Origin: Acidobacteriota bacterium | Lineage (GTDB): Bacteria; Acidobacteriota; Terriglobia; UBA7540 | Direction of reading: 5' to 3' | Assembly (NCBI GenBank): GCA_021838785.1 | Contig: JAKCCV010000004.1 | Coordinates: 83,537-147,536, forward strand | Length of the DNA stretch: 64,000 nucleotides | In this document: one piece after another, positions 1,759-21,362 of the stretch | Layout of the letters: each line of letters opens with the position of its first letter | How positions within the stretch are numbered: the stretch's first letter is position 1 | Position numbers and translations under genes: made by a program | The notes under the pieces: generated by a model | Seen by the model: only the letters and a program-made list of their open reading frames with translations | Database searches by the model: none | Told to the model about the DNA's origin: nothing

Positions 1759-3243
1759 TCAAGGCTGGTTTTCGACCAACGTCGTTTTGGGATGAACCGG
1801 CAACAGCAAGGGCGGGCGGGCCGGCTGCGTAAAATCAAAATCACGCATCAGATTGCCGAGCATCGGACTATTTTCCCGCACGTAAGGCCTGGAATCGGGT
1901 CGGCCGTCGGTCGCGGGGTTCAGCCGCTGGCCGTGCAGAAAGATGTCTTCAATAAATTTGAGGTAGGCGTCGAAACTGAGCGGCTGATGGTCGATATATC
2001 CTCGCTTGGCGTAAGGACTAATCACCAGCCCCGGCACTCGGATGCCCCACCCGAGCGAATCCACGCGGGGAGGAACCACGTGGTCGTAAAACCCTCCCCA
2101 GTCGTCCCACGTGATAAAGATGGCGGTGCTCTTCCAGTCGGGGCTTTCCATCGCGGCATTCACTATCTTCGTCACGTAGGATTGCCCCACACTCACCTTG
2201 GCGGGAGGGTGCTCGCTATCTTCGCCATTGGGGGAAAACCATGCTACGGATGGAAGGGTTCCATCTTTGGCGGCCACAAAAAAGCGGCTAAGGTCCTCGA
2301 TATTGGCTGTTTGATGATCCTCATGGACATCCGTAAAGCCGGGCAGCACGTTCCAGATGACGGGGACACGCTTCACGCTCTCTTTGGCTTCCCTGAGCTT
2401 AGAGGCAAAGGGAGCGCTTTTCCCGACCTTTTTAGCTCCCTTGCTGCGGGGATGCCGTGGCAGCCACCCACCGTGGTCCAGGTAGTAAACCCAGCTCACA
2501 TGGTCTTTGTGCAACAGCCAGGTGATTTCTGTCCAGGCGAACGGTGTAGGATCTTTGCGAGTCCTATTCCTGGGCATAAGAGCGCTTACGCAGCTCATGG
2601 GGTTGTTGACTTGGCTGCAATTAGCTGCCCAGGCGGAAACAAGAAATAAGTGTGATGGGAAGCTCCAGGAGTGAACCGACTCAAACATATGATCCTGGAG
2701 CACAAAATGTTTCGCATAGGCCCAGTAGTTGGGGATATCTCCCGCGTCATGGTATCCCATGACTTGATCAGACTCTTCTGGGTCAGTGGGATGTTGGCAG
2801 TTCTGGCGAGGCCAAGCAAGAGGATTGAAACCGAAGTATCCCGCTGCCTGTACTTCTCTGATAAATCCATTCATCGCGCCGTTCGCGATGTCCGCCAAAG
2901 ACGCTTCCGCGGCGTGCGGGCCGCCGCAGTTCACATCGTCATGGTCGAGATAAGGTTTCACGCATTGGCCCGTCTTGGGATCGGGAACGCAGACCGTGGG
3001 CACGCCGTCCCGCATGGGAATACCGTCCGCCCCAGGGTAAGTGCCAAAGTAGGAATCAAAGGAGCGATTTTCCTGGAAAATGATAATGACGTGTTGGATG
3101 GGAAAATCTTTTCGGGGAGCTACGTCGGCCCTTGGGTTCGGCGCGCCGCCTTGAGCCATGCTGGCCGTGGCCGCGCTCAGGCTCATCAAAACGGCCAGTC
3201 CCACCCAAAGTCCATGAGAACAGCCGCAACCCATTTTTGCCAT
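1759..3243 (-). CDS. phosphoesterase family protein (phospholipase C / AcpA acid phosphatase type)
   Basis: Hallmark [24 protein letters not shown] near the N-terminus. Signal peptide [32 protein letters not shown] follows the ATG at 3243. The longer 649-aa ORF is probably upstream read-through. Confidence 0.85.
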
Positions 3244-3941
3244 TGCATCACCCCTTGTGCTAAACGTTGCTTCGTGAACGGCCCCATGCTGGCACCCTCG
3301 TTGGGCAATGTCAAGCCGTTCGCTGCGAAGCGGACAGGCTGCGATTGCCGCGCCTTGCCCAGAAGTTTTGGCCATGCTCCGGCTAAAGATGGGCGCGCGG
3401 CCGACATTCTGCAATCGTTGACAAACCCCGCAACGGATCGCGCCAACCGACCGCTCGGTCGGTGGCTGCCAACACCGTAAAAGACCATCCCCCCGCGCGT
3501 CAATTCGAGCAGCTTCTGCACGATTTGAGCCATCCGCGGCCCTACCGCCGTCGAAAGGAAAATTGACGGCCAACCACCAACTCACTGAATCGGCTTTGGT
3601 TAACTCACAGTATGCGAACGCTTGACTGATTGGCAACCAAGTTGCTCCCGTCGTAGTGGGCGCTGTGGCAGGGGTGGCGGTTCGCACCCCGTGATAGAAT
3701 CGGCTCACAACGCAGGCCGCTCACTCACCGTCGAGCAGCGTGTGCCGATAAATACTCCGTGTGACTTGATGCCCGGACGGTGGTCGCCGGAGCGCAGCTC
3801 TTGAAGTGGAGTCATTATTATTCCAAAATTGGTCAATGGACTGGGCAGAACGGCAGATTTAATCTCGGATCGCTTCAGCACGGCCCGCGAGGTTTAGAAA
3901 GCGGGGAGTTGAAAAATCATTTTAGAGGGAGGATAAGGAAT

Positions 3942-4493
3942 ATGACAAAGCGACTAGGAAAGATGCTTGTCGGGTTAGGAATTTCAATGTGCCTGGCCGG
4001 CTTGCCGCTCTTCGCGCAGCGAGGCGGCGGAGCCGGCCACGGCATGGGCGGCGGCATGGGCATGGGGCAGCATCCCGCCGGCGGTTTTGGGCAAGAGCAT
4101 AGCAACATGCCGCGCATGGGCGGCGAGCGGCAAAATCCAATGAACCACAGCCTCTCGCACCACTCGAACCTCGGCATGAATTCGCCCACCACCCTGCTGT
4201 CACAAAACACCAAGCTCTCGTCGCGTCTCCAATCGCTGCTGCCGGCGGGCACCAACGTGCAGGAGGCGGCGAGCGGTTTCAAGAATCTTGGGCTGTTCGT
4301 GGCGGCGGTTCACGTCTCTCACAACCTGGGCATTCCGTTTGATGAGTTGAAGTCCACCATGCTCTCGAACGGCGATAACCTCGGCAAAGCGATTCACACG
4401 TTGAATCCGCACTTGACCAAAAAGCAAGTGAAGTCAAACGTTAAGAAAGCTCGCCGAGAGGCCAGCCACGACCTCAAGGAAGCTCGCTCCTAG
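3942..4493 (+). CDS. hypothetical secreted protein, Gly/Met/His-rich N-terminal region
   Basis: ATG at 3942 preceded by GAGGGAGG. Signal peptide MTKRLGKMLVGLGISMCLAGLPLFAQ followed by GGGAGHGMGGGMGMGQHPAGG. Confidence 0.6.
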   Translation: MTKRLGKMLVGLGISMCLAGLPLFAQRGGGAGHGMGGGMGMGQHPAGGFGQEHSNMPRMGGERQNPMNHSLSHHSNLGMNSPTTLLSQNTKLSSRLQSLLPAGTNVQEAASGFKNLGLFVAAVHVSHNLGIPFDELKSTMLSNGDNLGKAIHTLNPHLTKKQVKSNVKKARREASHDLKEARS

Positions 4494-4772
4494 GCTCGGG
4501 CGTTTGACCGGGGTGGAGCGCGATGCAACGTCTCCGCCCCGGCCTGTCATCGTTTCCGCGTCCCAGGCCACAGAGCCTTGGCGGTTTTCTCAGCCACGCT
4601 CGCGCGACGGCTCCTCCGGCCGCGACCCGAGCATTCCCACCCTTGGGAGGCGAGGCGGCCGCCGCCGCTTCTTCCTTCATTCCCGTCCCTTCCCCTGCGC
4701 CTTCTCACCCCAAACGTTGTATAATGCCAGCTAGCTCGAGTCCAAGACCGCAGGGGACGGCGAGGTGGATGC

Positions 4773-6338
<1,566 letters not shown>

Positions 6339-7171: not shown

Positions 7172-9190
7172 ATGCATCGTCATTTCAACGCCACGGTAAT
7201 TGGCGCCATAGCTTTTTTGACGGCCTGTGGCATGGCCTTGGCGGGTGGCCAAGAGCCTCGACCGGGCACCGTCATTGTTCCTCCATCGAACGTCGAGCGG
7301 CCGCAAGACATCGGCAAGCGCTCGCACACCAATTTCTTGATCTTTATTCCCGCCGCGCGAAGCGGCAAGCAACCCGCGCCCGCTACCAGTTCAGGGCCCA
7401 GCGGCGAAACGCCGCCGTCGCTCGCTTGCGTTTATCAGACGGCCTCCACGCTCGCTTCAGGATGCCCCATCATTAACTCCCCAACGAGCAGCGAACCGGA
7501 TGCCTCGGGCGGCTCGAACGTCATTGCCATCGTGGATGCCTATGACGATCCGACCGCGGCGAGCGATTTCCAGACCTTCTCTCAGCAATTCGGCCTGCCT
7601 TACGGCGACGAGTGCGGCCCCAACAAGAACGCAGCCTGCTTTACCAAAGTTTACGCCACCGGCTCGCAGCCCAAGGCCAATTGCAGTTGGGCGCAGGAAG
7701 AATCGCTCGACATCGAGTGGTCTCACGCCATGGCGCCCTACGCCCAAATCATCTTGGTCGAGGCCGCATCGAACAGCAACAGCAACCTCATGCAAGCCGT
7801 GAGTGTGGCCAACAACCTCGTCAGCACCTGCGACGGCCTTTGCTCTTCCGGTGGCACGGGCGAAGTTTCCATGAGCTGGGGCAGCAGCGAATTCTCCACT
7901 GAATCCACCTTCGACTCCTACTTCACAACCCACGGCGTCACTTACTTCGCTTCGAGCGGCGATAGCGGAGGCCAAGTCATTTGGCCCTCCGCTTCGCCCA
8001 ACGTCGTCTCGGCCGGCGGCACCACCATCGGTCGTGATTCAAGCGGAAGCTTCACCGGCGAGACGACATGGACGGATGCCGGCGGCGGCCCGAGCAGCTA
8101 CGAGGCCATGCCGGGCTACCAGCAAGTCATCTCCGACATCAACACGTCGGGCATGAGAGGAACGCCGGACTTGTCCTTTGACGCCAACCCCGCTTCCGGC
8201 GTCTCCGTCTATGACAGCACGTCGTGCCAAGGTCTGGTCGGCTGGCTGGTTTTTGGCGGCACAAGCGTGGCCGCGCCCTCGCTTTCCGGCATCGTCAATG
8301 ACGCCGGGGCTTTTGACGGCGGCTGGGACGGCGGCAGCAATTCCTCAAGCGTACAAAGCAATCTCTACTCAAACTACGGGACGGATACCGATTTTAGTAC
8401 TGACCCAACTACCTGCTCCTATACATCCTCGACGCCGTTTTACGACATCACTACCGGCTCGGCAGGCACCTATCCCGCCACCGCTTGCTGGGATTTTGCG
8501 AGCGGCATCGGAAGCGACCGTGGATTGACCGGATTCAATCCGCCATCGAGCACGGCAGGCTTCTCCTTGTCAGCCTCGCCTTCAACTCTGACGCTGACCG
8601 CAGGCTCAACCACTTCAGCAACCAGCACCATCAGCATGACCGCCTCCGGCGGGTTCAGTGGAACCGTCACGCTCAGCGCCAGCGCGCCGAGCGGCTCCGG
8701 CCTAACCGTAAGCCTCAGCCCAACCTACATATCGGGCTCAGGAACATCCACGTTGACGGTCGGCGCGGGCACAGCAACAGCGGGCACTTACACCGTCGCG
8801 GTAACCGGGACCAGCAGCGGTTTCCCCAGCAGCACGACGGACGTTACTGTGACCGTTAGCCCCTCTAGCTCTTCGCCGACGGTTTCTTCCGTCACCCTCA
8901 GCCCCTCGAGCGTCACCGGTGGCACATCATCCACGGGAACCGTCACACTCACTGCCGCTGCGTCCTCCGGTGGCGCCGTCGTGTCGCTCACCAGCAGCAA
9001 TACCTCCGTTGCGTCGGTCCCCAGCAGCGTCACGGTCAGCGCCGGCTCAACAAGCGCGAGCTTCACCGTTACGACCAGCGCGGTAACGACTCAAACCAGC
9101 GTGACGATTACAGCCAGCTACAACAACTCAAGCGCCAGCGCCACGCTGACCGTCAAGCCACCGCATGGCCACGGGAACAAGCAACACTAG
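7172..9190 (+). CDS. secreted S53 (sedolisin/kumamolisin-like) or S8/S53 serine peptidase with Ser/Thr-rich Ig-like C-terminal repeats
   Basis: ATG at 7172 with signal peptide. VIAIVDAYD, ASSGDSGG and GGTSVAAPSLSG motifs. Long C-terminal S/T-rich beta-repeat region. Confidence 0.7.
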   Translation: MHRHFNATVIGAIAFLTACGMALAGGQEPRPGTVIVPPSNVERPQDIGKRSHTNFLIFIPAARSGKQPAPATSSGPSGETPPSLACVYQTASTLASGCPIINSPTSSEPDASGGSNVIAIVDAYDDPTAASDFQTFSQQFGLPYGDECGPNKNAACFTKVYATGSQPKANCSWAQEESLDIEWSHAMAPYAQIILVEAASNSNSNLMQAVSVANNLVSTCDGLCSSGGTGEVSMSWGSSEFSTESTFDSYFTTHGVTYFASSGDSGGQVIWPSASPNVVSAGGTTIGRDSSGSFTGETTWTDAGGGPSSYEAMPGYQQVISDINTSGMRGTPDLSFDANPASGVSVYDSTSCQGLVGWLVFGGTSVAAPSLSGIVNDAGAFDGGWDGGSNSSSVQSNLYSNYGTDTDFSTDPTTCSYTSSTPFYDITTGSAGTYPATACWDFASGIGSDRGLTGFNPPSSTAGFSLSASPSTLTLTAGSTTSATSTISMTASGGFSGTVTLSASAPSGSGLTVSLSPTYISGSGTSTLTVGAGTATAGTYTVAVTGTSSGFPSSTTDVTVTVSPSSSSPTVSSVTLSPSSVTGGTSSTGTVTLTAAASSGGAVVSLTSSNTSVASVPSSVTVSAGSTSASFTVTTSAVTTQTSVTITASYNNSSASATLTVKPPHGHGNKQH

Positions 9191-12151: not shown

Positions 12152-13926
12152 CCCGGCGGGACCTGCTTCGCTGCGGCGCGGTGATGCTCGCGGGCATTGC
12201 CGAGGGATGCTCGCGCCGCGCCTCCAAGCAAAAACCGGAGGTCTTCAACAGTGCGGCGCGCAAACTCGTCGGCGACAATCCCGGCGTCGTGTTTACGGAT
12301 GTCACGCGCCAGGCCGGCATTGATTTCGTCCATTCTTCCGGCGTGCGCACCCACCAACTTCCGGAAGACATGGGTCCGGGCGCGGCCTGGGGCGACTACG
12401 ATAACGACGGCTGGCCCGACCTTTATCTCGTCAATCAGCCCGGCCCCTGGGGCGCGAAGCCCACCGCCGACGATCCTTTCAGCCATCTCTACCACAACAA
12501 CGGCGATGGAACGTTCACCGACGTCACCCTCCGCGCCGGCGTGGCCAATCGTGGCGGCTACGGCATGGGCGCGGCTTGGGGCGACTACGATAACGACGGC
12601 CGCCTTGACCTCTACGTCACCAATTACGGCCGCTCGGTGCTCTACCACAACAACGGCGATGGAACCTTCACCGACGTCACCGACCGCGCCGGGGTCGCCA
12701 ACCATCTCTGGGGAATGACCCCCGTCTGGATAGACTATGATAACGACGGCTATCTCGATCTCTACGTCACCAACTATGCGGATTACAACCTGCAAAGCGT
12801 GCCTTCGGGCGCCACCGCGGCGGAGTATGGCATCAACGTTCCCTTCACTTTGAATCCCGCCTCTTTTCATCCCCTCCCGAATCGCCTCTATCACAACCAT
12901 CGTGACGGAACGTTCACCGACGTGGCGCCGCAGCTCGGCGTGGCCAATCCGAGCGGACGGAGTTTGACCGCAGCGTTTGCGGATTTCAATCTCGACGGCT
13001 GGCAGGATTTCTACGTGGGCAACGACATTGCTTCGAACCGCATGTACCTCGGCTTGGGCGGCGGGCGGTTCAAGGACATCACCGCTGCGTCCTGGACGGA
13101 AGACAACCGGGGAACGATGGGCATCGCCATTGGCGATTATGACAACGCCGGCGACCTCGACATGTACCTCACGCACTGGCTAACGCAGGGCTTTTCCCTT
13201 TATGAAAACCTCTGGATGGCGCAAGGCGGGCGCGGCCCGCTCCACTTTTCCGATGTCGCGGAGATGTTTGGCTGCGGAGAAATTGCCATGGGCGACGCCG
13301 GATGGAGCACCTTCTTCTTCGATTTTGATAACGACGGATGGCTGGACATCCTGGCCGTCTGTGGTTCCACGCTCGAGAACAAGGCGGACACCACCCAGCT
13401 CATTCCCGAACGGCCTTTCCTGTTTTGGTCCAAGGGCCAAGATGGTTTCTACGACTTGGCGCGCTCCGGGGCGGCGGGCCGCGCGCTTCAGCAGCCCCTG
13501 GTCGGTCGAGGCGCCGCCTGCGCCGATTTTGACCGCGACGGCGACCTCGACATGATAATCATGACGAATCGCGGCCGCCCGCTGCTGCTGCGCAATGACG
13601 GCGGCAATCGAAACCACTGGCTGGCCGTGCATCTGGTAGGAACGCGCAGCAACCGTTCGGGCTATGGCGCCAAGGTCTATCTCACCTCGAACGGCCAGCG
13701 CCAGTTCCGGCAATACGGCGCGGCGGGAGCGTATCTTTCCCAATGCGCGCCTGAAGCCTGGTTTGGGCTCGGCCAAAGTTCAAGCGTCGAGAAAGTTGAA
13801 ATCCTCTGGCCGAGCGGCCTTCATCAGACCCTCCAAAATCCTCCCTCGAATCTCATGCTGAGCGTGATTGAAGGCCAAGCCGGTTGGACGGCGCTACCCC
13901 AAAAGCCGAACCCGGTGCCCCCTTAG
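12148..13926 (+). CDS. FG-GAP/VCBS repeat protein with ASPIC/UnbV-like C-terminus (CRTAC1 family)
   Basis: Repeated GDYDNDGxxDLYVxN motifs, C-terminal GYGAKVYLT...VEILWPSG. Start ATG overlaps the cytochrome stop (ATGA at 12148-12151). Confidence 0.85.
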   Translation: MTRRDLLRCGAVMLAGIAEGCSRRASKQKPEVFNSAARKLVGDNPGVVFTDVTRQAGIDFVHSSGVRTHQLPEDMGPGAAWGDYDNDGWPDLYLVNQPGPWGAKPTADDPFSHLYHNNGDGTFTDVTLRAGVANRGGYGMGAAWGDYDNDGRLDLYVTNYGRSVLYHNNGDGTFTDVTDRAGVANHLWGMTPVWIDYDNDGYLDLYVTNYADYNLQSVPSGATAAEYGINVPFTLNPASFHPLPNRLYHNHRDGTFTDVAPQLGVANPSGRSLTAAFADFNLDGWQDFYVGNDIASNRMYLGLGGGRFKDITAASWTEDNRGTMGIAIGDYDNAGDLDMYLTHWLTQGFSLYENLWMAQGGRGPLHFSDVAEMFGCGEIAMGDAGWSTFFFDFDNDGWLDILAVCGSTLENKADTTQLIPERPFLFWSKGQDGFYDLARSGAAGRALQQPLVGRGAACADFDRDGDLDMIIMTNRGRPLLLRNDGGNRNHWLAVHLVGTRSNRSGYGAKVYLTSNGQRQFRQYGAAGAYLSQCAPEAWFGLGQSSSVEKVEILWPSGLHQTLQNPPSNLMLSVIEGQAGWTALPQKPNPVPP

Positions 13927-13971
13927 CCCGCGCGCGCGCTCCGTCTTCGGGCGCGGCGGCTCGACGCATTC

Positions 13972-13996
13972 GTGGCACGGCCATCTTGGCCGTGCT
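13972..13996. repeat. REP-like palindromic element, copy 2
   Basis: Same 25-mer as 9351-9375, located between the convergent CRTAC1-like and csp genes. Confidence 0.7.
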
Positions 13997-14072
13997 CTCG
14001 CGGGGCGCACACCTCGCCCTCGTTTTGCCTCAAACCTCATTTCGGCGCGGGAGGGGTCCCGGGAAAATCCGC

Positions 14073-14276
14073 CTATTTTGCCAGGGCGCGCACGCCGCTC
14101 GCCCGGGGGCCTTTTTCACCGCGCACCACTTCAAACTCCACGGCCTCGCCTTCCCGCAAGCTATCGAAGTTGAGTCCCTGAAGAGCGCTACGGTGGAAAA
14201 ACACTTCCGTGCCCTCGGACGTCCGAATGAATCCAAAGCCTCGGTCACGGAGAATACGCTTGATCGTCCCTTCCAC
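14073..14276 (-). CDS. cold-shock protein (CspA family)
   Basis: GTIKRILRDRGFGFIRTSEGTEVFFHRSAL carries the RNP1-like GFGFI and RNP2-like VFFH motifs. GTG start 5 nt after AGGAGG gives a 67-aa product of typical Csp size. Confidence 0.8.
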   Translation of the reverse strand: MEGTIKRILRDRGFGFIRTSEGTEVFFHRSALQGLNFDSLREGEAVEFEVVRGEKGPRASGVRALAK

Positions 14277-14365
14277 AGCCACCTCCTGCGCGCATAAAAA
14301 GAGCCGACTTTCAGGGGGGAGTTGCTGACGCCCCGACGGAAGCTGTCCCTTCTTTGCGTGCCCGA

Positions 14366-14394
14366 ACTCTATCAACCCCCATCGCAAATGTCAA
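14366..14394 (-). promoter_or_regulatory. sigma-70-like promoter upstream of csp
   Basis: On the minus strand: TTGACA, 17-nt spacer, TAGAGT. Predicts a 5' UTR of about 80 nt, as is usual for csp genes. Confidence 0.45.
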
Positions 14395-14437
14395 AAGGAA
14401 GTCTGGACCTTGGGGAGTCGGCTCGGCTTGTCAACGC

Positions 14438-14803
14438 TTAGCCGCTCGAGGGTGACGGCGGGCCGAAGGACGCTATCGCGCTCGGCAACGAGTCATAGCG
14501 TTCAAACACCGTGCTCAGCCGGGTGATTTGCAGCAGGTCGTGGACTCGCCGCGTCAGATTCAGCAACTTCAAGTCGCCGCCCCGCTTGCGCACCGTGGTG
14601 TAGGCGGCGACCAGCGTGGAAAGGCCGGCGCTGTCAATGTAAGTGATTTCGCCCAAATCCAGCACGATTCGCAGCTGTCCGGCGCGCGCGCACTCGGAGA
14701 TTTTCTCGCGCAGCCCCTGGGTCTCTTCTCCGAGCGTGATGCGCCCTCGCGCGTCCAGCACCAGAACGTCGCCAATCATCTTCTCCACCAGGTAGAGGGT
14801 CAT
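14438..14803 (-). CDS. STAS-domain anti-sigma-factor antagonist (SpoIIAA/RsbV-like)
   Basis: MTLYLVEK...LDLGEITYIDSAGLSTLVAAY...GGDLKLLNL...V. ATG at 14803 preceded by GGAGGAGG. The annotated 325-aa ORF upstream of this point runs through a repeat and is not credible. Confidence 0.85.
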   Translation of the reverse strand: MTLYLVEKMIGDVLVLDARGRITLGEETQGLREKISECARAGQLRIVLDLGEITYIDSAGLSTLVAAYTTVRKRGGDLKLLNLTRRVHDLLQITRLSTVFERYDSLPSAIASFGPPSPSSG

Positions 14804-14936
14804 GCGTCCTCCTCCCCGATCTTGGAGGGCTTGGGGTTCTTCTTCTCGATAGCGGCCATCATAGCACGAGGCGGAAACACCAGCGGTTTTTTGTCCCCCG
14901 TCCCACGCGCTCCTAACCGCCGGCTGACCGAAAGCC

Positions 14937-15223
14937 GTAGCGCAGAGGTTGCGCGTCGCAACCTCTGCGGCTCGTGCCGGTGCCCGCCGGAAAAAACCGC
15001 AGAGTTTCCGAACGCGTAACCCCGCGCGACGCAGGCGATCCATTGGCCGTTGGGCGAGACTGATGGGCGGCAGCAAGGCAGGTTCGTAATCTTTCGCTCC
15101 GCGCCGCCTGGCCCGGTTAAAATCCTCCCGTGCGGGGTCTCGATTTCCTCGGTTGCCTTTCGCCCTCAGGCTTCCTTCGTGCCCCCCACCATGACCGCTT
15201 CCCGCAGGTTCGCGCACGTGCCC
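14937..15223 (+). repeat. ~290-bp hairpin-headed repeat, copy A (full length)
   Basis: Aligns by eye over its whole length with 17854-18145, at roughly 90 percent identity. Begins with a perfect 13-bp stem, cgcagaggttgcg-cgt-cgcaacctctgcg (14941-14969). Confidence 0.85.
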
Positions 15224-15236
15224 GACGCGGCAGCAG

Positions 15237-15331
15237 GTAGCGCAGAGGTTGCGCGTCGCAACCTCTGCGGCTCGTGCCGGTGCCCGCCGGAAAAAACCGC
15301 AGAGTTTCACACTCCGCAACCGCGCGCGACG
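15237..15331 (+). repeat. ~290-bp repeat, copy B (head only, about 95 bp, tandem to copy A)
   Basis: Repeats the first ~95 bp of the element (hairpin plus ccgcagagtttc...cgcgcgacg), 13 bp after copy A ends. Confidence 0.85.
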
Positions 15332-15611
15332 TGCTGGGCCGTTCAACCCTTGCGCCCGTCGAGCTGGCCGCCGTCCATTCTTGGCCAAGCCTGACTGCCG
15401 CGGCCGACGCCACAAGCGCCGCAGAGCAGCGCCAACGACGCGCGCCTCTGCGCTGCGGGCTCAAAAGAAAAGTCTCCTGCACCTTCAAAAGAAAAAACCT
15501 CTTGAAGTCCAAGAGAGAATCTACCCGCTTCAGGCCGCGAAGATTTCCGCCGCCCCCGCACCACGCCGCGCTCTTTACAGCCGCCAAAGCTGAACATATA
15601 CTCGGTGAGAC

Positions 15612-16931
15612 ATGGGACACGCCGGGACAGAGCTGGGCGCGCCAGCGATCGGTGGGGAACGGAGCGAGGACACGTTCCGCACGCTCGCGGCGTTGCTTCG
15701 CCGAGACCTGGATTTTGGCTCCTCGGACAGCGGCTATGCGTCCCATGCCATCCACCCCTTCGCCGCAAAGTTCCCGCCGCAGATCCCGCGCTTATTCATC
15801 GAGGAGCTCACGCAGAGCGGGGATTCCGTCCTCGATCCGATGGCCGGTTCCGGCACAACCATCGTCGAGGCGCTCATGCTCAGGCGAGAGGCCTTTGGCT
15901 TTGATATTGACCCCTTAGCCGTCAGGTTGTGCACTGTGAAGACGACCTGGCTAGACCCTGTGGACCTCCAAAGGCGCTGTCTAGCGATCATCGAGGACGC
16001 GTTAGACATGGGGAAGTCGGGTTCGCACCTTCGCCGTGAACTTGAGACCCGCTACGACGCGGAGACCAGAAAGTTCATAGACTACTGGTTCCTCCCCGAG
16101 ACACAGTTGGAGCTTCTGGCCCTCGTGCTAGCTATTGAGAGGGTCAGCGAGCCAGCCCCGCGCGGCTTTTTCGAGTTGGTCCTGTCCTCGACCATCATCG
16201 CGAAAACAGGGGGGGTCTCGATGGCCCGCGACCTGGCCCATTCGAGACCCCACCGCGACCCAGCCAAGAACCCGCGCAACGCTATCACCGAATTCCGACT
16301 CAGGTCAGCAAAGGCGCTCAAGAAGTTTCAGAACCTCCCGCAGCGCGTGAAAAAGGTCTTCGTTGCGGAACGCGACGCAAGGAACCTGCCCCTGCCGACA
16401 GGCTCGATTGACCTCGTCGTGACATCTCCCCCCTATGCCAATGCGCTCGACTACATGCGGGCGCACAAGTTCAGCCTGGCGTGGCTGGGATACCCCCTCC
16501 GAGCCCTGAGCGCCTTGCGGGGAAGGTACATCGGGAGCGAAAACCTCCACGGCGGTCCCACCGGCGAACTGCCGAGGAGGTCCGCCGCCGCCGTGCGCGC
16601 ACTCGCGGAGAGGGACGCAAGGAAGGCGAAGGTCTTGGCGAAGTACCTCGGCGAAATGAGAGATGCGCTCGCCGAAACGAACCGCGTCCTGAAGCCCGGC
16701 AAGGGGGCGGTCCTCGTTGTCGGGCCGTCCATAATGCGGGGAGTGCCTATCCTCACACACGAGTACCTCGCAGAAATCGGGAGCTCCGTGGGATTCCGAC
16801 TCGCCGGAGTCCAGAAACGAAGAATTGACCGCGACCGCAGAATGCTCCCTGTAAGCCTCGACCGTAACGGCCACTCGACGATCGAGCAGCGGATGCACGA
16901 GGAGTACGTGGTCGGGCTGGTCAAGGAATAA
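15612..16931 (+). CDS. type II DNA methyltransferase, N4-cytosine/N6-adenine (SPPY) class
   Basis: AdoMet motif I VLDPMAGSGTTIVEA, then catalytic motif IV DLVVTSPPYANALDY. Also HAIHPFAAKFPPQIP and RVLKPGKGAVLVVG. Confidence 0.85.
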   Translation: MGHAGTELGAPAIGGERSEDTFRTLAALLRRDLDFGSSDSGYASHAIHPFAAKFPPQIPRLFIEELTQSGDSVLDPMAGSGTTIVEALMLRREAFGFDIDPLAVRLCTVKTTWLDPVDLQRRCLAIIEDALDMGKSGSHLRRELETRYDAETRKFIDYWFLPETQLELLALVLAIERVSEPAPRGFFELVLSSTIIAKTGGVSMARDLAHSRPHRDPAKNPRNAITEFRLRSAKALKKFQNLPQRVKKVFVAERDARNLPLPTGSIDLVVTSPPYANALDYMRAHKFSLAWLGYPLRALSALRGRYIGSENLHGGPTGELPRRSAAAVRALAERDARKAKVLAKYLGEMRDALAETNRVLKPGKGAVLVVGPSIMRGVPILTHEYLAEIGSSVGFRLAGVQKRRIDRDRRMLPVSLDRNGHSTIEQRMHEEYVVGLVKE

Positions 16932-16946
16932 AGGCGGCCCCGCGCG

Positions 16947-17834
16947 ATGCCTGCCACAATCCGTGACCAAAAGCTGTCCGAGCTGAGGACGCAGTACCAC
17001 GCGAAGATACTCTCAAAACTTCTGGGCAGACGCGGCCCCGCGGGAGCATTCTCGAACGCCGACTCGGGGAGCAAGGCGAGTAAGGAAATCGCTGAGCGCA
17101 TGGCCCAAAGACTTTCCGCCCAAACGCACAACAGCCCGTGCAGGAAGCTTCCGAGCGAGCAGACCCTTGGCAATGTTTTCGCAAGGCTTACGGAGGAATT
17201 TTTGGAAGCCGCCTTCCGACGCCTACACCACCTCCGCCCCGGAGACTGGGTGTTTTCCACGAGCCAGGATACCAAGGGCATCAGCAGACACCATCAGTAT
17301 GAGCACTTGGCGCAACTTGAAGACCTTTTAAGGCAACATCCTGAACTGAGGTCCACACTCGGGGGCGACTACCTGATTACCCCCGACATCACGGTGTCGC
17401 GCCGACCCGTGAGCGACCAAGAAATCAACCGCCGCGGGGACTTTGTGGACGGTTCTGAGCAGCTCGCCAACCACGCCCCGCTGCGCGAGGCGGTGAACAA
17501 GACCACAATCCTCCATGCAAGCATTTCGTGCAAGTGGACCATTCGGAGCGACCGGGCGCAAAACACTCGCACGGAGGCACTCAACCTGATCAGGAACCGA
17601 AAAGGGAAGGTTCCGATTGTCGCCGCGGTGACCTTCGAGCCACTGCCGACCCGGCTTGCCTCCATCGCGCTGGGCACGGGCGACCTGGACTGCACTTACC
17701 ACGGCGCTCTCAACGAGCTCGCCGCGGCAGTGGACGGGACGGGAAACCCGGATCAGAGGGAAATGCTCGACACGCTCGTCCACGGTAGGCGGCTCCGCGA
17801 CATCAGCGACCTGCCGTTCGATCTCGCTACCTAG
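16947..17834 (+). CDS. type II restriction endonuclease, NgoMIV/Cfr10I-like family
   Basis: From memory it aligns along the length of R.NgoMIV: LRPGDW, GGDYLITPDITVSR, LHASISCKWTIRSDRAQN, LNLIRNRKG, IALGTGDLDCTYH, GRRLRDISDLPFDLA. Starts 15 nt after the methyltransferase stop. Confidence 0.8.
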   Translation: MPATIRDQKLSELRTQYHAKILSKLLGRRGPAGAFSNADSGSKASKEIAERMAQRLSAQTHNSPCRKLPSEQTLGNVFARLTEEFLEAAFRRLHHLRPGDWVFSTSQDTKGISRHHQYEHLAQLEDLLRQHPELRSTLGGDYLITPDITVSRRPVSDQEINRRGDFVDGSEQLANHAPLREAVNKTTILHASISCKWTIRSDRAQNTRTEALNLIRNRKGKVPIVAAVTFEPLPTRLASIALGTGDLDCTYHGALNELAAAVDGTGNPDQREMLDTLVHGRRLRDISDLPFDLAT

Positions 17835-17853
17835 CGCATCGTGCAGTTGGCAG

Positions 17854-18145
17854 GTAACACAGAGGTTGCGCGGTGCAACCTCTGCGGCTCGTGCCGGCGC
17901 CCGCCGGAAGGACCCGCAGAGTTTCACACTCCGCAACCCCCGCGCGACGCAGGCGATCCATTGGCCGTCGGGCGAGACTGATGGGCGGCAGCAAGGCAGG
18001 TTCGTAATCTTTCGCTCCGCGCCGCCTGGCCCAGTTAAAATCCTCTCGTGCGGGGCTCTCGATTTCCTCGGTTGCCTTTCGCCGTCGGACTTCCTTCGTG
18101 CCCTTCCCCACCATGACTGCTTCCCGCGGGTTTGCGCACGTGCCC
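17854..18145 (+). repeat. ~290-bp hairpin-headed repeat, copy C (full length)
   Basis: Same orientation as copy A. Together A/B and C bracket the R-M gene pair. Confidence 0.85.
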
Positions 18146-18199
18146 AAGGCCGCAGAAATTGAACTTGGACCACCCCCGGTGGCGCCGGCGAGTCAAGCT

Positions 18200-18442
18200 C
18201 CGCCGGCCGGGGCTGCGAGGCGAGCCGACGGTTAGGGATCGTTCGAGGGTTGGAGCGCCCAGCGGTTTTTCCTGAGAAAGTCTTCCACCAAGCCCATGTC
18301 GGAGGAACCGCACAGAATCAACCGGCACAGCTCATCCGCTTGCCCGACGCGCGGATCCACCTTGGCGGCTTGCTGATAAACCTCCCGAGCTTGGCGCGGG
18401 TGTTTCTCTTTCCACAGGGCGATGGCTTGGAGCACGAGCGCG
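18200..18442. repeat. 243-bp direct repeat D1 (duplicate of the TPR gene 3' end)
   Basis: Near-identical to 19783-20024. By eye there are three substitutions and one 1-nt indel. Confidence 0.9.
18232..18442 (-). pseudogene. 3' fragment of the TPR-repeat gene (duplicate of the last ~70 codons of 19814-20929)
   Basis: Translation LVLQAIALWKEKHPRQAREVYQQAAKVDPRVGQADELCRLILCGSSDMGLVEDFLRKNRWALQPSNDP is identical to the C-terminus of the intact TPR protein. It has no N-terminal part. Confidence 0.85.
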
Positions 18443-18487
18443 ACCATGAGGGAGGCTGCCCGCGCTCAACGAAGAGGCGGGAGGAAG

Positions 18488-19279
18488 CTACTTGCGCTCG
18501 GCGATCCCCTCCCGCACCAACCCTTCGTCGAGCCGGCTGAGAGCGTTTCCCGGGACCGCAAGATCAGCACTCTGTTCCAGTATCTTAGTGCTTTCGGAGG
18601 ACCACTTGGTAGAAATGACATCGTACACCAATCCGACCTTGAGCTTAGGATTTGCCTGCCTAATATCGCCAGCCTTGAATCCCCACGCCTCCGCCGTAAG
18701 GTGCGCGTTTGATCCTGATAGTATCGCAATGGCAATGCCAGGTCTGCCGTTGGGCGGAATCAGGAAATCAACCGAATGTTTCTCTATCCTCCCTCGTACC
18801 TTGTCCCGTTCCCTGTAAGGAAGACTCCTCCTGCCCAGCACGTCTTTAACCTCTCGCACCAAATCCTCTTCCTTCGCTAGGAATTTTGGCCTATACGTAA
18901 GATAGACATCGCCGACCGTCTTGGCCGCCTCCACAAATTTCTGGATACTTAATCCCAATTCGTCGCGCCTCGACTCCAAGATCATGTAGTTTTCTTTGAA
19001 GGTTAGCCCGTAAGACTTCGCAAGCTCTTCTAGCCTCGACACCGTGCTGGCTTGAACTTCATGCCCTGCGTTGCGGAGTTCCTCTATCGTCCTTGCCATA
19101 TCCGAAACTATGTACTGGTCATCAGAGACGCGCGTCACGGCGACCTCGATGCGGTGATCCGCCGAGTAATGAAAAGGAAAGGAAATGAGGACACTCCCGC
19201 CCTCTAAGGGCTCAGCCTCGATGAGGCCGCGATAGCTTTGCAAATAGGTAGAAAGCACCGAATCAAGGAGGGTGTTCAT
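18488..19279 (-). CDS. DUF1828/DUF1829-like two-domain protein (uncharacterised)
   Basis: The N-terminal half (ISFPFHYSADHRIEVAVTRVSDDQYIVSDMARTIEELRNAG...) and the C-terminal half (VRGRIEKHSVDFLIPPNGRPGIAIAILSG...WGFKAGDI) fit the patterns I associate with DUF1828 and DUF1829. No HMM was run. Confidence 0.55.
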   Translation of the reverse strand: MNTLLDSVLSTYLQSYRGLIEAEPLEGGSVLISFPFHYSADHRIEVAVTRVSDDQYIVSDMARTIEELRNAGHEVQASTVSRLEELAKSYGLTFKENYMILESRRDELGLSIQKFVEAAKTVGDVYLTYRPKFLAKEEDLVREVKDVLGRRSLPYRERDKVRGRIEKHSVDFLIPPNGRPGIAIAILSGSNAHLTAEAWGFKAGDIRQANPKLKVGLVYDVISTKWSSESTKILEQSADLAVPGNALSRLDEGLVREGIAERK

Positions 19280-19740
19280 TCTAACCTCAATTCATCCTGG
19301 ATTTGTTCGACCTCAATGTTCCATTTGTCGAGCCCCCACTGAAACACTCCCCGCAGGTCGGCCCCTCCAACTCGGGGTCGCGCAGGTATTACCCGTGCGT
19401 CAGCATCCTCATCGTTCCAAATGTGCTCGTGCCACCCGCGCACCACCGTCCCGTCCGGATTGTCGTGCCTGATTTCATAATCTAGGCCCCGTATTCGGCA
19501 TCCGTGCCAAAGTAGGGAACACGACGCCTTGCCGCGCGGCAGGCCAGGTAAACGCCTTTTCACGCGAGCCTTTACTATCAGCCCTCCGGTCACGGCCCGG
19601 GGATCGTCCCTCATTCTAACCTCCGCTTCGATTATTGACCATCCGCTCTCTTCTACAACCGCTGGAATCGCCAAGATCTGCTTCCTCGAGCCGACAAGAT
19701 AATCAGCCTCGCTCTCCGTGAATTTGCGCCGCTGCCCCAT
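19276..19740 (-). CDS. hypothetical protein, no family recognised (His-rich block YEIRHDNPDGTVVRGWHEHIW)
   Basis: 154-aa ORF. Its stop overlaps the start of the downstream DUF1828/1829-like gene (ATGA, 19276-19279). Same strand as the TPR gene just upstream. Confidence 0.55.
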   Translation of the reverse strand: MGQRRKFTESEADYLVGSRKQILAIPAVVEESGWSIIEAEVRMRDDPRAVTGGLIVKARVKRRLPGLPRGKASCSLLWHGCRIRGLDYEIRHDNPDGTVVRGWHEHIWNDEDADARVIPARPRVGGADLRGVFQWGLDKWNIEVEQIQDELRLE

Positions 19741-19782
19741 CTCCGGCGCGCAACTCTACTACCGATTGACCCCAATCGCAAG

Positions 19783-20024
19783 CCGCCGGCCGGGGCGCGA
19801 GGCGAGCCGACGGTTAGGGGTCGTTCGAGGGTTGGAGCGCCCAGCGGTTTTTTCTGAGAAAGTCTTCCACCAAGCCCATGTCGGAGGAACCGCACAGAAT
19901 CAACCGGCACAGCTCATCCGCTTGCCCGACGCGCGGGTCCACCTTGGCGGCTTGCTGATAAACCTCCCGAGCTTGGCGCGGGTGTTTCTCTTTCCACAGG
20001 GCGATGGCTTGGAGCACGAGCGCG
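19783..20024. repeat. 242-bp direct repeat D2 (native 3' end of the TPR gene)
   Basis: Partner of D1 at 18200-18442. Confidence 0.9.
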
Positions 20025-20929
20025 GCGGCGGAGCGTGGGTTGGCCGCCAACGCCTCGGCGCACTCCTCGAGCGCGGCGTTCAGGTGTCCCTGCTTCCAAA
20101 ACACCAGCGCCATCAGGTGATGTCCCGCCGCGTCCTGGGGATGGTCGGCGGTCAGCGACGAAGCCAGCTTCTGCGCCGCCGCCACGTCGCCTTGACGCAG
20201 CAGCGCCAGGCCCAGCTCCGCTTGCGCCGCCGCAAATTCGGGTTGCGCGGCGACCACCTGTTGCAGCATCTTCGTGGCCTTCGCCGCTTGCCCCGCTCTC
20301 GCCAACAGCTTGGCCAACTCAAATTCCGCCTGCCAGTCGCTCGGATTTAACGACAGCGCTTTCTCGAGAAGTTGTCGAGCCTCGGCGCCCTTGCCGGCGC
20401 GCAGCTCCAGGCGAGCCAGCGGCACGTAGGCCGCTTCCAACGTGGGAGCAACTCGCAGGGCCTGGGTAAAATCTTCCGCCGCTTCGCGCTCGCGATGCTC
20501 CGCCAGGGAAATTTCTCCCAGCCCGAAATAGGCCACCCCGCTTTTGGGATTCAAACTTAGCGCGGCCTTCCATTGCCGTTGAGCGCCCGCCTCATCGCCG
20601 GTTTTGAGCAGCGCCAGGCCGATGGCAGTGCGCGCCGACGCCTGCTCGGCGGGCGAAGTGGCCAGGGAAAGCGCCTGTCGGGCCTCTGTCAAAGCGCGGC
20701 GGGGATGATGCCTGGCAAGTTCCGCGTTCGCCAGGGCCAGCCGCAAGGAGAAATCCCGCGGATGCGCCTCGACCGCTTTTTGAATCGCCTCGAGCGACGA
20801 ATGGGAAGACGAGCTACCGCCCTGCGGCGCGGCGCGGCATGGCACGACGGCCACCCACGCCACAAGCCACAGCCACGCGAGCGCGCCCCATCCGCCGTGA
20901 CAACCGCGCGAACCTAGGCCCGGCGTCAT
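19814..20929 (-). CDS. tetratricopeptide (TPR) repeat protein, secreted or lipoprotein-like
   Basis: Multiple 34-aa TPR units (AYFGLGEISLAEHREREAAEDFTQALRVAP etc.). Signal-like GALAWLWLVAWVAVVPCRAAP. The ATG at 20929 was chosen because it lies 5 nt after the upstream stop; ATGs at 20965 and 21001 are also possible. Confidence 0.8.
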   Translation of the reverse strand: MTPGLGSRGCHGGWGALAWLWLVAWVAVVPCRAAPQGGSSSSHSSLEAIQKAVEAHPRDFSLRLALANAELARHHPRRALTEARQALSLATSPAEQASARTAIGLALLKTGDEAGAQRQWKAALSLNPKSGVAYFGLGEISLAEHREREAAEDFTQALRVAPTLEAAYVPLARLELRAGKGAEARQLLEKALSLNPSDWQAEFELAKLLARAGQAAKATKMLQQVVAAQPEFAAAQAELGLALLRQGDVAAAQKLASSLTADHPQDAAGHHLMALVFWKQGHLNAALEECAEALAANPRSAAALVLQAIALWKEKHPRQAREVYQQAAKVDPRVGQADELCRLILCGSSDMGLVEDFLRKNRWALQPSNDP

Positions 20930-20933
20930 CCCC

Positions 20934-21362
20934 TCAATGCGCCAGACGAATCTGCTTGGGGTCATGGATGACGATCTCCGCTCGCCCGCCGTAACTGACA
21001 ATTTCGCCCAACACGGCGATTCTCCGCCCTTCGAGCGCGCTCAGGTTGCCGAAACGGGATCGGTCGGAAGCAAAAATCACCGTGCTGAACGGACACTGAC
21101 GATAGTCCCGGCAAAAATCCAAAAACGTGTTCCCTGACCGCGAAGTGAAAACCCGCAACACCCGGCCCGTCACGCATCCGTTCTCGCCCGTGTGGAGAGC
21201 GGCTTGGTGGAAGTCCACGCAGCCGCCCGTTCCATTGGACGCGCCGGTTGAAGGGACAAGCGACGACGCTCGACGACGCCCCAGCCGATACGCTACCAGG
21301 GCGCTGAGCGCCGCTGCCGTCACCACCACCAGCCCAACTGCGGCCCATTGCTTGCGCCCCAT
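20934..21362 (-). CDS. hypothetical membrane-anchored protein, possible OB-fold domain
   Basis: N-terminal TM helix WAAVGLVVVTAAALSALVAY followed by a small beta-rich domain (VTGRVLRVFTSRSGNTFLDF...RIAVLGEIVSYGGRAEIVI). Confidence 0.5.
   Translation of the reverse strand: MGRKQWAAVGLVVVTAAALSALVAYRLGRRRASSLVPSTGASNGTGGCVDFHQAALHTGENGCVTGRVLRVFTSRSGNTFLDFCRDYRQCPFSTVIFASDRSRFGNLSALEGRRIAVLGEIVSYGGRAEIVIHDPKQIRLAH

Follow-up and report, generated by a model that had tools for sequence, protein, structure and literature searches.

A translationally coupled DUF6978 and DUF1828/DUF1829-like gene pair of Acidobacteriota, related to the defence candidate PDC-M24 and with a probable TumE relationship of its small subunit

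A stretch of 64 kb of Acidobacteriota DNA (contig JAKCCV010000004.1), hereafter called the window and used for all coordinates below, carries a cassette of two genes which we call A and B and which an earlier note on this DNA had put forward as a translationally coupled module with a possible role in immunity. Both genes start with ATG and lie on the minus strand, A at 19276-19740 (154 aa) and B at 18488-19279 (263 aa). The plus strand at 19276-19279 is TCAT, hence ATGA in the coding direction, and the TGA stop codon of A thus overlaps the ATG of B; this confirms the two coupled open reading frames (ORFs) with an ATGA overlap that had been described, and fixes their strand as minus. Its profile matches place the cassette in the DUF6978 plus DUF1828/DUF1829 family, which is catalogued as the candidate defence system PDC-M24 and of which it forms a divergent branch specific to Acidobacteriota. 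Its features are as follows.

19276-19740, minus strand: gene A, a DUF6978-family small protein, PDC-M24A-like and TumE-like putative effector (ORF and family matches).
18488-19279, minus strand: gene B, DUF1828 plus a diverged DUF1829-like C-terminal domain of restriction endonuclease (REase) fold; putative partner, antitoxin or sensor (ORF, Pfam, PDC-M24B, hhalign and structure model).
19276-19279, minus strand: ATGA stop/start overlap of A and B (sequence).
19285-19288, minus strand: GAGG Shine-Dalgarno sequence of B, within the 3' end of A and 5 nt before the ATG; the coding strand reads 5'-GAATTGAGGTTAGA-ATG.
19417-19497, minus strand: family signature of A and putative active site (R84, H104, H106), residues 82-108, RIRG..YE.RHDNPDG..VRGWHEHIW (alignment conservation).

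Public annotation starts A at Met43, which gives a protein of 112 aa. About 15-16 homologues of A are 153-155 aa long and the first 42 residues are conserved (FTE.EVDYLV..K.I), and for these reasons we take the protein of 154 aa to be the real form. The G+C content is 57% for A and 53% for B, compared to 60% for the window and 61-66% for the neighbouring genes, and this lower G+C was counted toward a foreign origin of the cassette. The same structure is present in an NCBI assembly (100% identity to the window over 20.8 kb) and in an ENA contig (99.99% identity over 15.2 kb), and a Logan unitig, found in 7 samples, equals window positions 18413-19850 exactly and ends exactly where the k-mers turn repeat-ambiguous. 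Since independent assemblies and the Logan unitig agree, the arrangement is not an assembly artefact. A scan for consensus promoters and terminators scored no better than shuffled sequences.

Relatives of the two proteins are few. Among 5.8 billion clustered proteins, 16 relatives of A and 23 of B were found, at 40-63% identity and with sharply conserved motifs, and there are contigs common to the relatives of A and of B. Searching 1.84 billion representatives with a profile of A and its near homologues retrieved 136 clusters, a number that marks the A family as rare. The earlier note had recognised no family for A, but one exists: A matches Pfam DUF6978 (PF22398) with 28.0 bits compared to a gathering cut-off of 29.6, over the motif (residues 84-121) only, and DUF6978 is matched at E <= 0.01 by 23 of 41 members of a curated set (best E 2.1e-17) and by 35 of 134 members of the family (best 3.8e-20), several of them over the full length. 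As the A-based profile retrieves proteins that pass DUF6978, A belongs to this family transitively.

For B, a succession of DUF1828 and DUF1829 had been proposed. DUF1828 (PF08861) was detected directly, with 29.5 bits compared to a gathering cut-off of 22 (residues 35-119 against profile positions 2-88 of 91), and it is matched by all 23 B family members. DUF1829 (PF08862), in contrast, was missed by Pfam in each of the 23 at E <= 5, was absent from the precomputed annotation of 98 relatives, and was reached by remote homology: hhalign aligned the window B family with the canonical B of plasmid pRSB223, in which DUF1829 occupies residues 158-244, with a probability of 95% and an E-value of 2.7e-8 over residues 3-199. 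This alignment runs into the DUF1829 segment and places H168..D171-F opposite H-Q-F-D-F. On these alignments B is, at the family level, a DUF1828 plus DUF1829-type protein, of which the C-terminal domain has strongly diverged here.

Nor did the statement that no described system has this composition stand. In PADLOC-DB, B matches PDC-M24B (6.7e-15, 53 bits, residues 1-212 against profile positions 1-210 of 255) and A matches PDC-M24A (6e-5, 21 bits, residues 89-120, which cover 32 model positions only). PDC-M24 is a candidate of PADLOC-DB v2, cassette CAS_00098 (FAM_00129>>FAM_00065, listed with number 153), which was derived by guilt-by-embedding in BREX, DISARM or type I restriction-modification (R-M) systems and is one of 145 experimentally untried candidates (Payne et al. 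2024, bioRxiv 10.1101/2024.01.29.577857). Copies of A carried by plasmids reach 174 bits on M24A and 137-149 bits on DUF6978, and the plasmid copies of B reach 348-356 bits on M24B and match both DUF1828 and DUF1829 in Pfam; by these scores the plasmid pairs are canonical PDC-M24. NCBIfam holds no family for A, B or their canonical homologues, PHROGs gave families of unknown function only, and in the literature searched the name PDC-M24 was not found in the main text of any paper.

The pairing of both genes is strict. In all independent loci examined, comprising Acidobacteriota genomes, three plasmids and two temperate phages, A lies directly upstream of B. When one genome per GTDB species was scanned with the B profile, eight loci came up, every one of them in Acidobacteriota, and in each of the loci L001-L018 (listed as L001-L005 and L011-L018) tblastn showed a homologue of A, with identities down to 32%, immediately before B. 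The plasmids are pNYT2 of Haloarcula taiwanensis (CP019157.1; L019), in which A is an ORF of 143 aa at 5499-5930 that overlaps the DUF1828 gene, the IncP plasmid pRSB223, with an overlap of 4 nt, and the Acetobacter plasmid pAOF1. The A ORF of pNYT2 is missing from the PLSDB gene table, which is incomplete. The phages are Lactobacillus phage Lj965 (L033, 2571-3786) and Staphylococcus phage 37 (L034, 1997-3253; ORF031 and ORF014), copies that turned up only when the canonical B of the plasmids served as query, while searches of IMG/VR and INPHARED with the window B or its profile returned nothing; the canonical pair was found at the DNA level in no E. coli genome. In homologous loci, too, A and B either overlap (by 1 to 29 nt) or are separated by short gaps (4 to 34 nt). 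The view of the cassette as a tightly coupled unit is borne out by this co-occurrence in every locus examined, and neither a separation of the genes, nor a conserved housekeeping context, nor a lack of conservation was found.

What surrounds the pair varies between loci. Among the neighbours are a DDE transposase in L001, an integrase together with HTH_17 and D12 methylase genes in L002, AAA_25 and HNH genes on a JGI contig, an integrase in L015, an IS1595 transposase in L016 and, elsewhere, plain housekeeping genes. Contexts are thus variable and often mobile-element or defence-flavoured, in line with the expected placement in variable regions. In one Acidobacteriota chromosome (L013) a protein of 996 aa with HD-CE and HATPase_c_3 domains is encoded at 3197-6187, 1.3 kb upstream of the pair, an architecture that is known from conflict systems. 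A third conserved upstream gene was considered on two plasmids (506 and 509 aa) and rejected, the two proteins being unrelated. In a metagenomic fragment, P0161 (190 aa), an A-like C-terminus (..FKWGLKKWGIEV..) reads in frame into a B-like N-terminus, which is either a natural A-B fusion or the result of a lost stop codon; if real, a fusion would hint, in the Rosetta-stone sense, at a physical interaction.

Across 41 diverse members of the A family, K20, I83, R84, W103, H104, H106 and I142 are nearly invariant, with I83, R84, W103, H104 and H106 at least 90% conserved, whereas H92 and the NPDG turn occur in many members but not in all. The HxH motif is retained in the Haloarcula, IncP-plasmid and phage copies, and the phage A proteins (152 and 151 aa) share the signature as H.N.DGT...HIHLY and HKNPDGT...HIHIY. 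The structure model of A (pLDDT 88.5, pTM 0.83) has two helices (9-17 and 129-139) and an antiparallel sheet, with main strands at 34-43, 50-61, 73-78, 81-93, 99-109 and 113-119 and short strands at 20-22, 29-31 and 142-144. Foldseek gave no match of this model in the PDB at E <= 0.001 (best E 0.42, TM <0.3), and the sole match in BFVD (E 3.7e-4, TM 0.60), a Siphoviridae protein that is itself uncharacterised, is uninformative; PDB sequence searches with the A and B profiles gave nothing meaningful. The block LWHGCRIRGLDYEIRHDNPDGTVVRGWHEHIWNDEDADA is found in A as described, but the idea of a His-Me finger that had been attached to it found no support, with no PDB match of A at the above threshold, no match to an HNH-type Pfam family among the 41 and 134 A members, and no His-Me/HNH structure among the 641 weak Foldseek matches of A, results that leave room for a very small local motif at most.

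A link to a known toxin comes from the Haloarcula homologue of A, whose gene adjoins a homologue of B. This protein matches DUF6978 over the full length with 64 bits and also matches Pfam TumE (PF20126) with 24.5 bits compared to a cut-off of 23.4 (E 2.7e-5, profile positions 8-76 of 81), in a match that spans the Arg and HxH core and, with about 190 family members scanned in all, survives correction for multiple testing. By these two profile matches, the pNYT2 ORF bridges DUF6978 and TumE. According to its published description, the TumE protein (formerly DUF6516) packs two helices on an antiparallel sheet of seven strands, and neither HHpred nor Foldseek gave a match for it in the PDB; its gene usually forms a bicistron with that of a partner, the partners being diverse and unrelated, and the protein is toxic to E. 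coli, is neutralised by its partner, and lowers 35S-methionine incorporation, an RNase activity being proposed and not demonstrated (Durairaj et al. 2023, Nature, PMC10584680). The model of A agrees with this published fold description, a comparison made by verbal description only. We read A as a probable toxin of the TumE type. The make-up of its conserved core, Arg with two His and Glu, is typical of metal-independent RNases, and A may possibly share this chemistry.

Our best explanation of the pair is a module of the type II toxin-antitoxin or abortive-infection kind, in which A would be the TumE-like effector and B a partner that neutralises it or acts as a sensor. We hold this explanation tentatively, at a little less than an even chance, and the accessory immunity or toxin-antitoxin-like role proposed in the earlier note thereby remains the best reading of the locus. 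In such a module, A, as a small effector of the TumE superfamily, would probably block translation, possibly as a metal-independent RNase acting through the Arg and His-x-His cluster. Translational coupling would supply B in fixed proportion to A, and B would bind and restrain A until a trigger such as phage infection frees it. The restraint might be exerted through the chaperone-like DUF1828 domain and the catalytically degenerate REase-fold domain of B, for which binding of DNA or a ligand would be likelier than cutting, and prophages, plasmids and small islets would spread the pair. A bolder proposal, which is possible but which we consider doubtful, is that DUF6978 as a whole is an unrecognised branch of the TumE superfamily, and that, with the DUF1828-DUF1829 partner as sensor-antitoxin and the Arg/His-x-His cluster as a metal-independent RNase site, it forms a widespread abortive-infection or toxin-antitoxin system in prophages, plasmids, archaeal replicons and chromosomal islets.

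The roles of both proteins could also be reversed, and the structure of B bears on this. The model of B (pLDDT 86) has two domains, of which the C-terminal one is matched in Foldseek best by Can2 (8q44_B; 7.6e-4 over 230 columns), then by R2 RLE (7e-3) and AF1548 (7.5e-3), and further by BbvCI, EndoMS, XisH (E 0.23), McrC and EcoO109I; the N-terminal half also matches the type III secretion chaperone CesT. As modelled, the C-terminal domain has a restriction-endonuclease-like alpha-beta-beta-beta-alpha-beta core, in which the invariant D171 stands at the start of beta-2 and beta-3 (181-187) reads GIAIAIL, with Ala183 invariant. Other invariant polar residues of B are E166, H168, K202, D205 and D220, and these may leave room for a non-canonical activity or for the binding of a ligand or DNA. 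In a reading that we consider rather unlikely, B would be an effector nuclease with a non-canonical site (D171 with E166/H168/K202/D205) and A would be a sensor, activator or immunity factor. Such a nuclease would fit the position of the C-terminal domain among PD-(D/E)xK nucleases in Foldseek, the clustering of invariant acidic and basic residues in this domain, and the embedding of the PDC-M24 source cassettes in BREX, DISARM or type I R-M, next to which the adjacency of a type II R-M system in the window can be placed. However, beta-3 in the window clade has neither an acidic residue nor a Lys, so that the catalytic (D/E)xK and with it the canonical nuclease active site are absent; canonical DUF1829 proteins have a Glu at this site without the Lys; no nuclease family of Pfam is matched by B family members; and the TumE similarity points to A as the toxic partner. 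A nuclease fold, which the earlier note had thought worth looking for, was thus encountered in B as an REase-like fold, but a nuclease role for it is weakened.

The toxin-antitoxin or abortive-infection reading, with A as effector, gains further from the phage copies. Both phage pairs are located in the lysogeny module, with the repressor on one side and the integrase on the other, and that of Lj965 adjoins a superinfection-exclusion gene. This site between repressor and integrase is a classic spot for prophage defence or toxin-antitoxin genes. In Streptococcus Javan prophages and satellites, homologues of B lie 1.2-2.4 kb from one end of the record. Carriage by plasmids and prophage lysogeny modules would also suit a purely selfish addiction module, which would stabilise the island (R-M and cassette) or its carrier prophages and plasmids and would have no anti-phage function. 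In the window the pair adjoins another selfish element, a repeat-bracketed R-M pair, and the defence role of PDC-M24 is a predicted one only, both of which agree with mere addiction. On the other hand, many toxin-antitoxin modules at that prophage position are defensive, and the derivation of PDC-M24 by guilt-by-embedding agrees with defence; sequence alone does not separate defence from addiction, and we regard the purely selfish reading as unlikely.

Several points weigh against a toxin-antitoxin or abortive-infection module with A as the toxin. With 263 aa and two domains, B is large for an antitoxin, and its invariant E166, H168, D171, K202, D205 and D220 could mean that B itself is an enzyme. 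TumE was matched at E <= 0.01 by none of the 134 other A representatives, and window A is among the proteins with no match. A is the first gene here, whereas in most TumE-TumA pairs the toxin is encoded downstream. The window copy adjoins a defence system and is not embedded in one, and in the literature searched an experimental test of any PDC-M24 member was not found.

A second set of features surrounds the cassette and concerns the way in which it reached this locus.

18200-18442, no strand assigned: repeat copy 1, a displaced duplicate of the 3' end of the TPR gene (repeat alignment).
19783-20024, no strand assigned: repeat copy 2, the functional 3' end of the TPR gene plus 31 nt past its stop (repeat alignment, TPR domains).
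19814-21001, minus strand: TPR-repeat gene (TPR domains).
15612-16931, strand not stated: N6_N4 (N6/N4) DNA methyltransferase (domain search).
16947-17834, strand not stated: NgoMIV-family restriction endonuclease (E 1e-100).

The cassette lies between the direct repeats 18200-18442 and 19783-20024, which extend over 243 nt at 98.4% identity (3 mismatches and 1 indel), and itself carries no mobility gene, both as had been described. Repeat copy 1 holds an ORF of 71 aa (18232-18447, minus strand) which corresponds to the duplicated C-terminal fragment of the TPR protein with an ATG of its own gained; it is called as a gene in public assemblies and is most likely a remnant. The bracketing by repeats had been read as part of the signature of the module, a view that did not hold: when flanks of 1.5 kb were locally aligned and compared to shuffled controls, significant direct repeats were found in 2 of 14 loci only, the window and L002, and the other 12 had no flanking repeat above the shuffled background. 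In L002, a locus unrelated to that of the window, an 86-bp direct repeat (86% identity; 5615-5700 and 8151-8236) flanks the pair; here, too, the duplicated stretch is the 3' end of a gene next door (HTH_17), and a tyrosine integrase lies at 5 kb.

The type II R-M neighbour that had been reported is indeed beside the cassette, but not at about 340 bp: its end (17834) is 653 bp from the stop of B and 365 bp from the left repeat. The R-M module is bracketed as well: its direct repeats (14937-15233 and 17854-18155) measure about 300 nt, are 89.8% identical, have copies nowhere else in the window and lack an Rfam match. A third partial copy lies at 15237-15331, and each copy opens with the near-perfect palindrome CGCAGAGGTTGCGCGTCGCAACCTCTGCG (29 nt), which has 3 mismatches in the third copy. 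An integron attC site was considered for this palindromic repeat and rejected on inspection: the repeat forms a short perfect hairpin, an R''/R' core arrangement is missing, and the cassettes differ in strand. An Rfam search of 13800-20300 returned nothing, so the repeats are not known RNAs. Here, two neighbouring cassettes each have long target-like duplications, and the adjacency of these repeat-flanked cassettes suggests a common acquisition route.

Long repeats might also be the footprint of the pair itself, if A and B were a mobility or recombination accessory pair (XisH/XisI-like or of a homing type) that drives its own insertion. The 243-bp repeats around the cassette, the 86-bp repeat that duplicates the 3' end of a neighbour in L002, and the presence of XisH among the weak structural matches of B could be taken in this sense. 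The absence of flanking repeats above background from the 12 other loci is at odds with it, as is the lack of recombinase, transposase or HNH domains in the cassette proteins, and we consider such a role highly improbable. The neighbouring R-M module has similar repeats without containing this pair, so the repeats reflect how the locus acquires DNA: they tell how DNA entered and not how the pair works. The 243-bp repeats are thus a local insertion scar of the cassette at the 3' end of the TPR gene, rather than a family trait or a part of the machine. Single-crossover integration of a circular DNA with homology to the target, which would leave the TPR gene intact, is one possibility for the event. 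As to an empty site, an exact look-up of the TPR protein gave only contigs that already carry the cassette, and a metagenome scan with this protein gave no close orthologue with the downstream flank. The whole is a small acquired islet, of R-M and a toxin-antitoxin-like pair, amid housekeeping genes, and as such ordinary genome biology. Further away, at 12373-13554, families of direct repeats of 45-65 nt are the FG-GAP/VCBS repeat units of a gene for a UnbV_ASPIC-type protein and not a separate feature.

What was already known is the catalogue entry: the pair is listed as the candidate PDC-M24 and is experimentally untouched. To this the present analysis adds that the two genes stay together strictly and over a broad range (Acidobacteria, haloarchaea, Firmicutes phages), that the small subunit is probably related to TumE, that the large one has lost its nuclease motif, and that Acidobacteriota have a clade of their own which the PADLOC models barely reach. 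This turns PDC-M24 from a bare catalogue entry into a concrete and cheap experimental question. If the proposed module is real, the TumE superfamily would be enlarged together with its set of unrelated antitoxins, a function could be given to each of DUF6978, DUF1828 and DUF1829, and Acidobacteriota, of which to our knowledge the immune systems have barely been studied, would have a new defence gene pair.

Compared to known systems, the cassette is most like PDC-M24, with which it shares the gene order and sizes (a DUF6978 protein of about 150 aa followed by a protein of about 255 aa with DUF1828 and a C-terminal domain), the stop/start coupling and the HxH signature, and of which the models weakly match both window proteins. 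It differs in its C-terminal domain, which has no Pfam DUF1829 match and has lost the Glu of beta-3, in its weak M24A and M24B scores, and in its position beside a type II R-M system instead of within BREX, DISARM or type I R-M. What it has in common with TumE-TumA is a bicistron of two unrelated partners, of which the small one is, as modelled, an alpha+beta protein that packs two helices against an antiparallel sheet and has no homologue of solved structure. Here this partner is the 263-aa DUF1828/DUF1829 protein and not a small RelB-like or helix-turn-helix (HTH) antitoxin, window A itself has no direct TumE match, and the toxicity of A is a predicted one only.

Can2/Card1 and EndoMS/NucS, PD-(D/E)xK nuclease effectors whose N-terminal domain is a sensor, resemble B in their two-domain layout with a C-terminal REase-like fold, but the TM-scores are 0.35 or less, no CARF signal was seen in the sequence, and (D/E)xK is absent from B. 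A different kind of likeness is offered by DS-6/HipAD, a validated two-gene defence system in which DS-6B, a DUF1829-containing protein, is the predicted toxin- and DNA-binding partner of a HipA-like kinase (DefensePredictor, Science 2026, PMC13092281). The toxin there is this kinase, and its partner carries DUF3037 and not DUF1828, so that the two are likened by domain and no homology of DS-6B and B is implied. What both would share is a DUF1829-containing protein as the predicted partner of a translation-targeting toxin, and by analogy DS-6B provides an independent precedent for a DUF1829 protein as a toxin-binding and DNA-binding partner.

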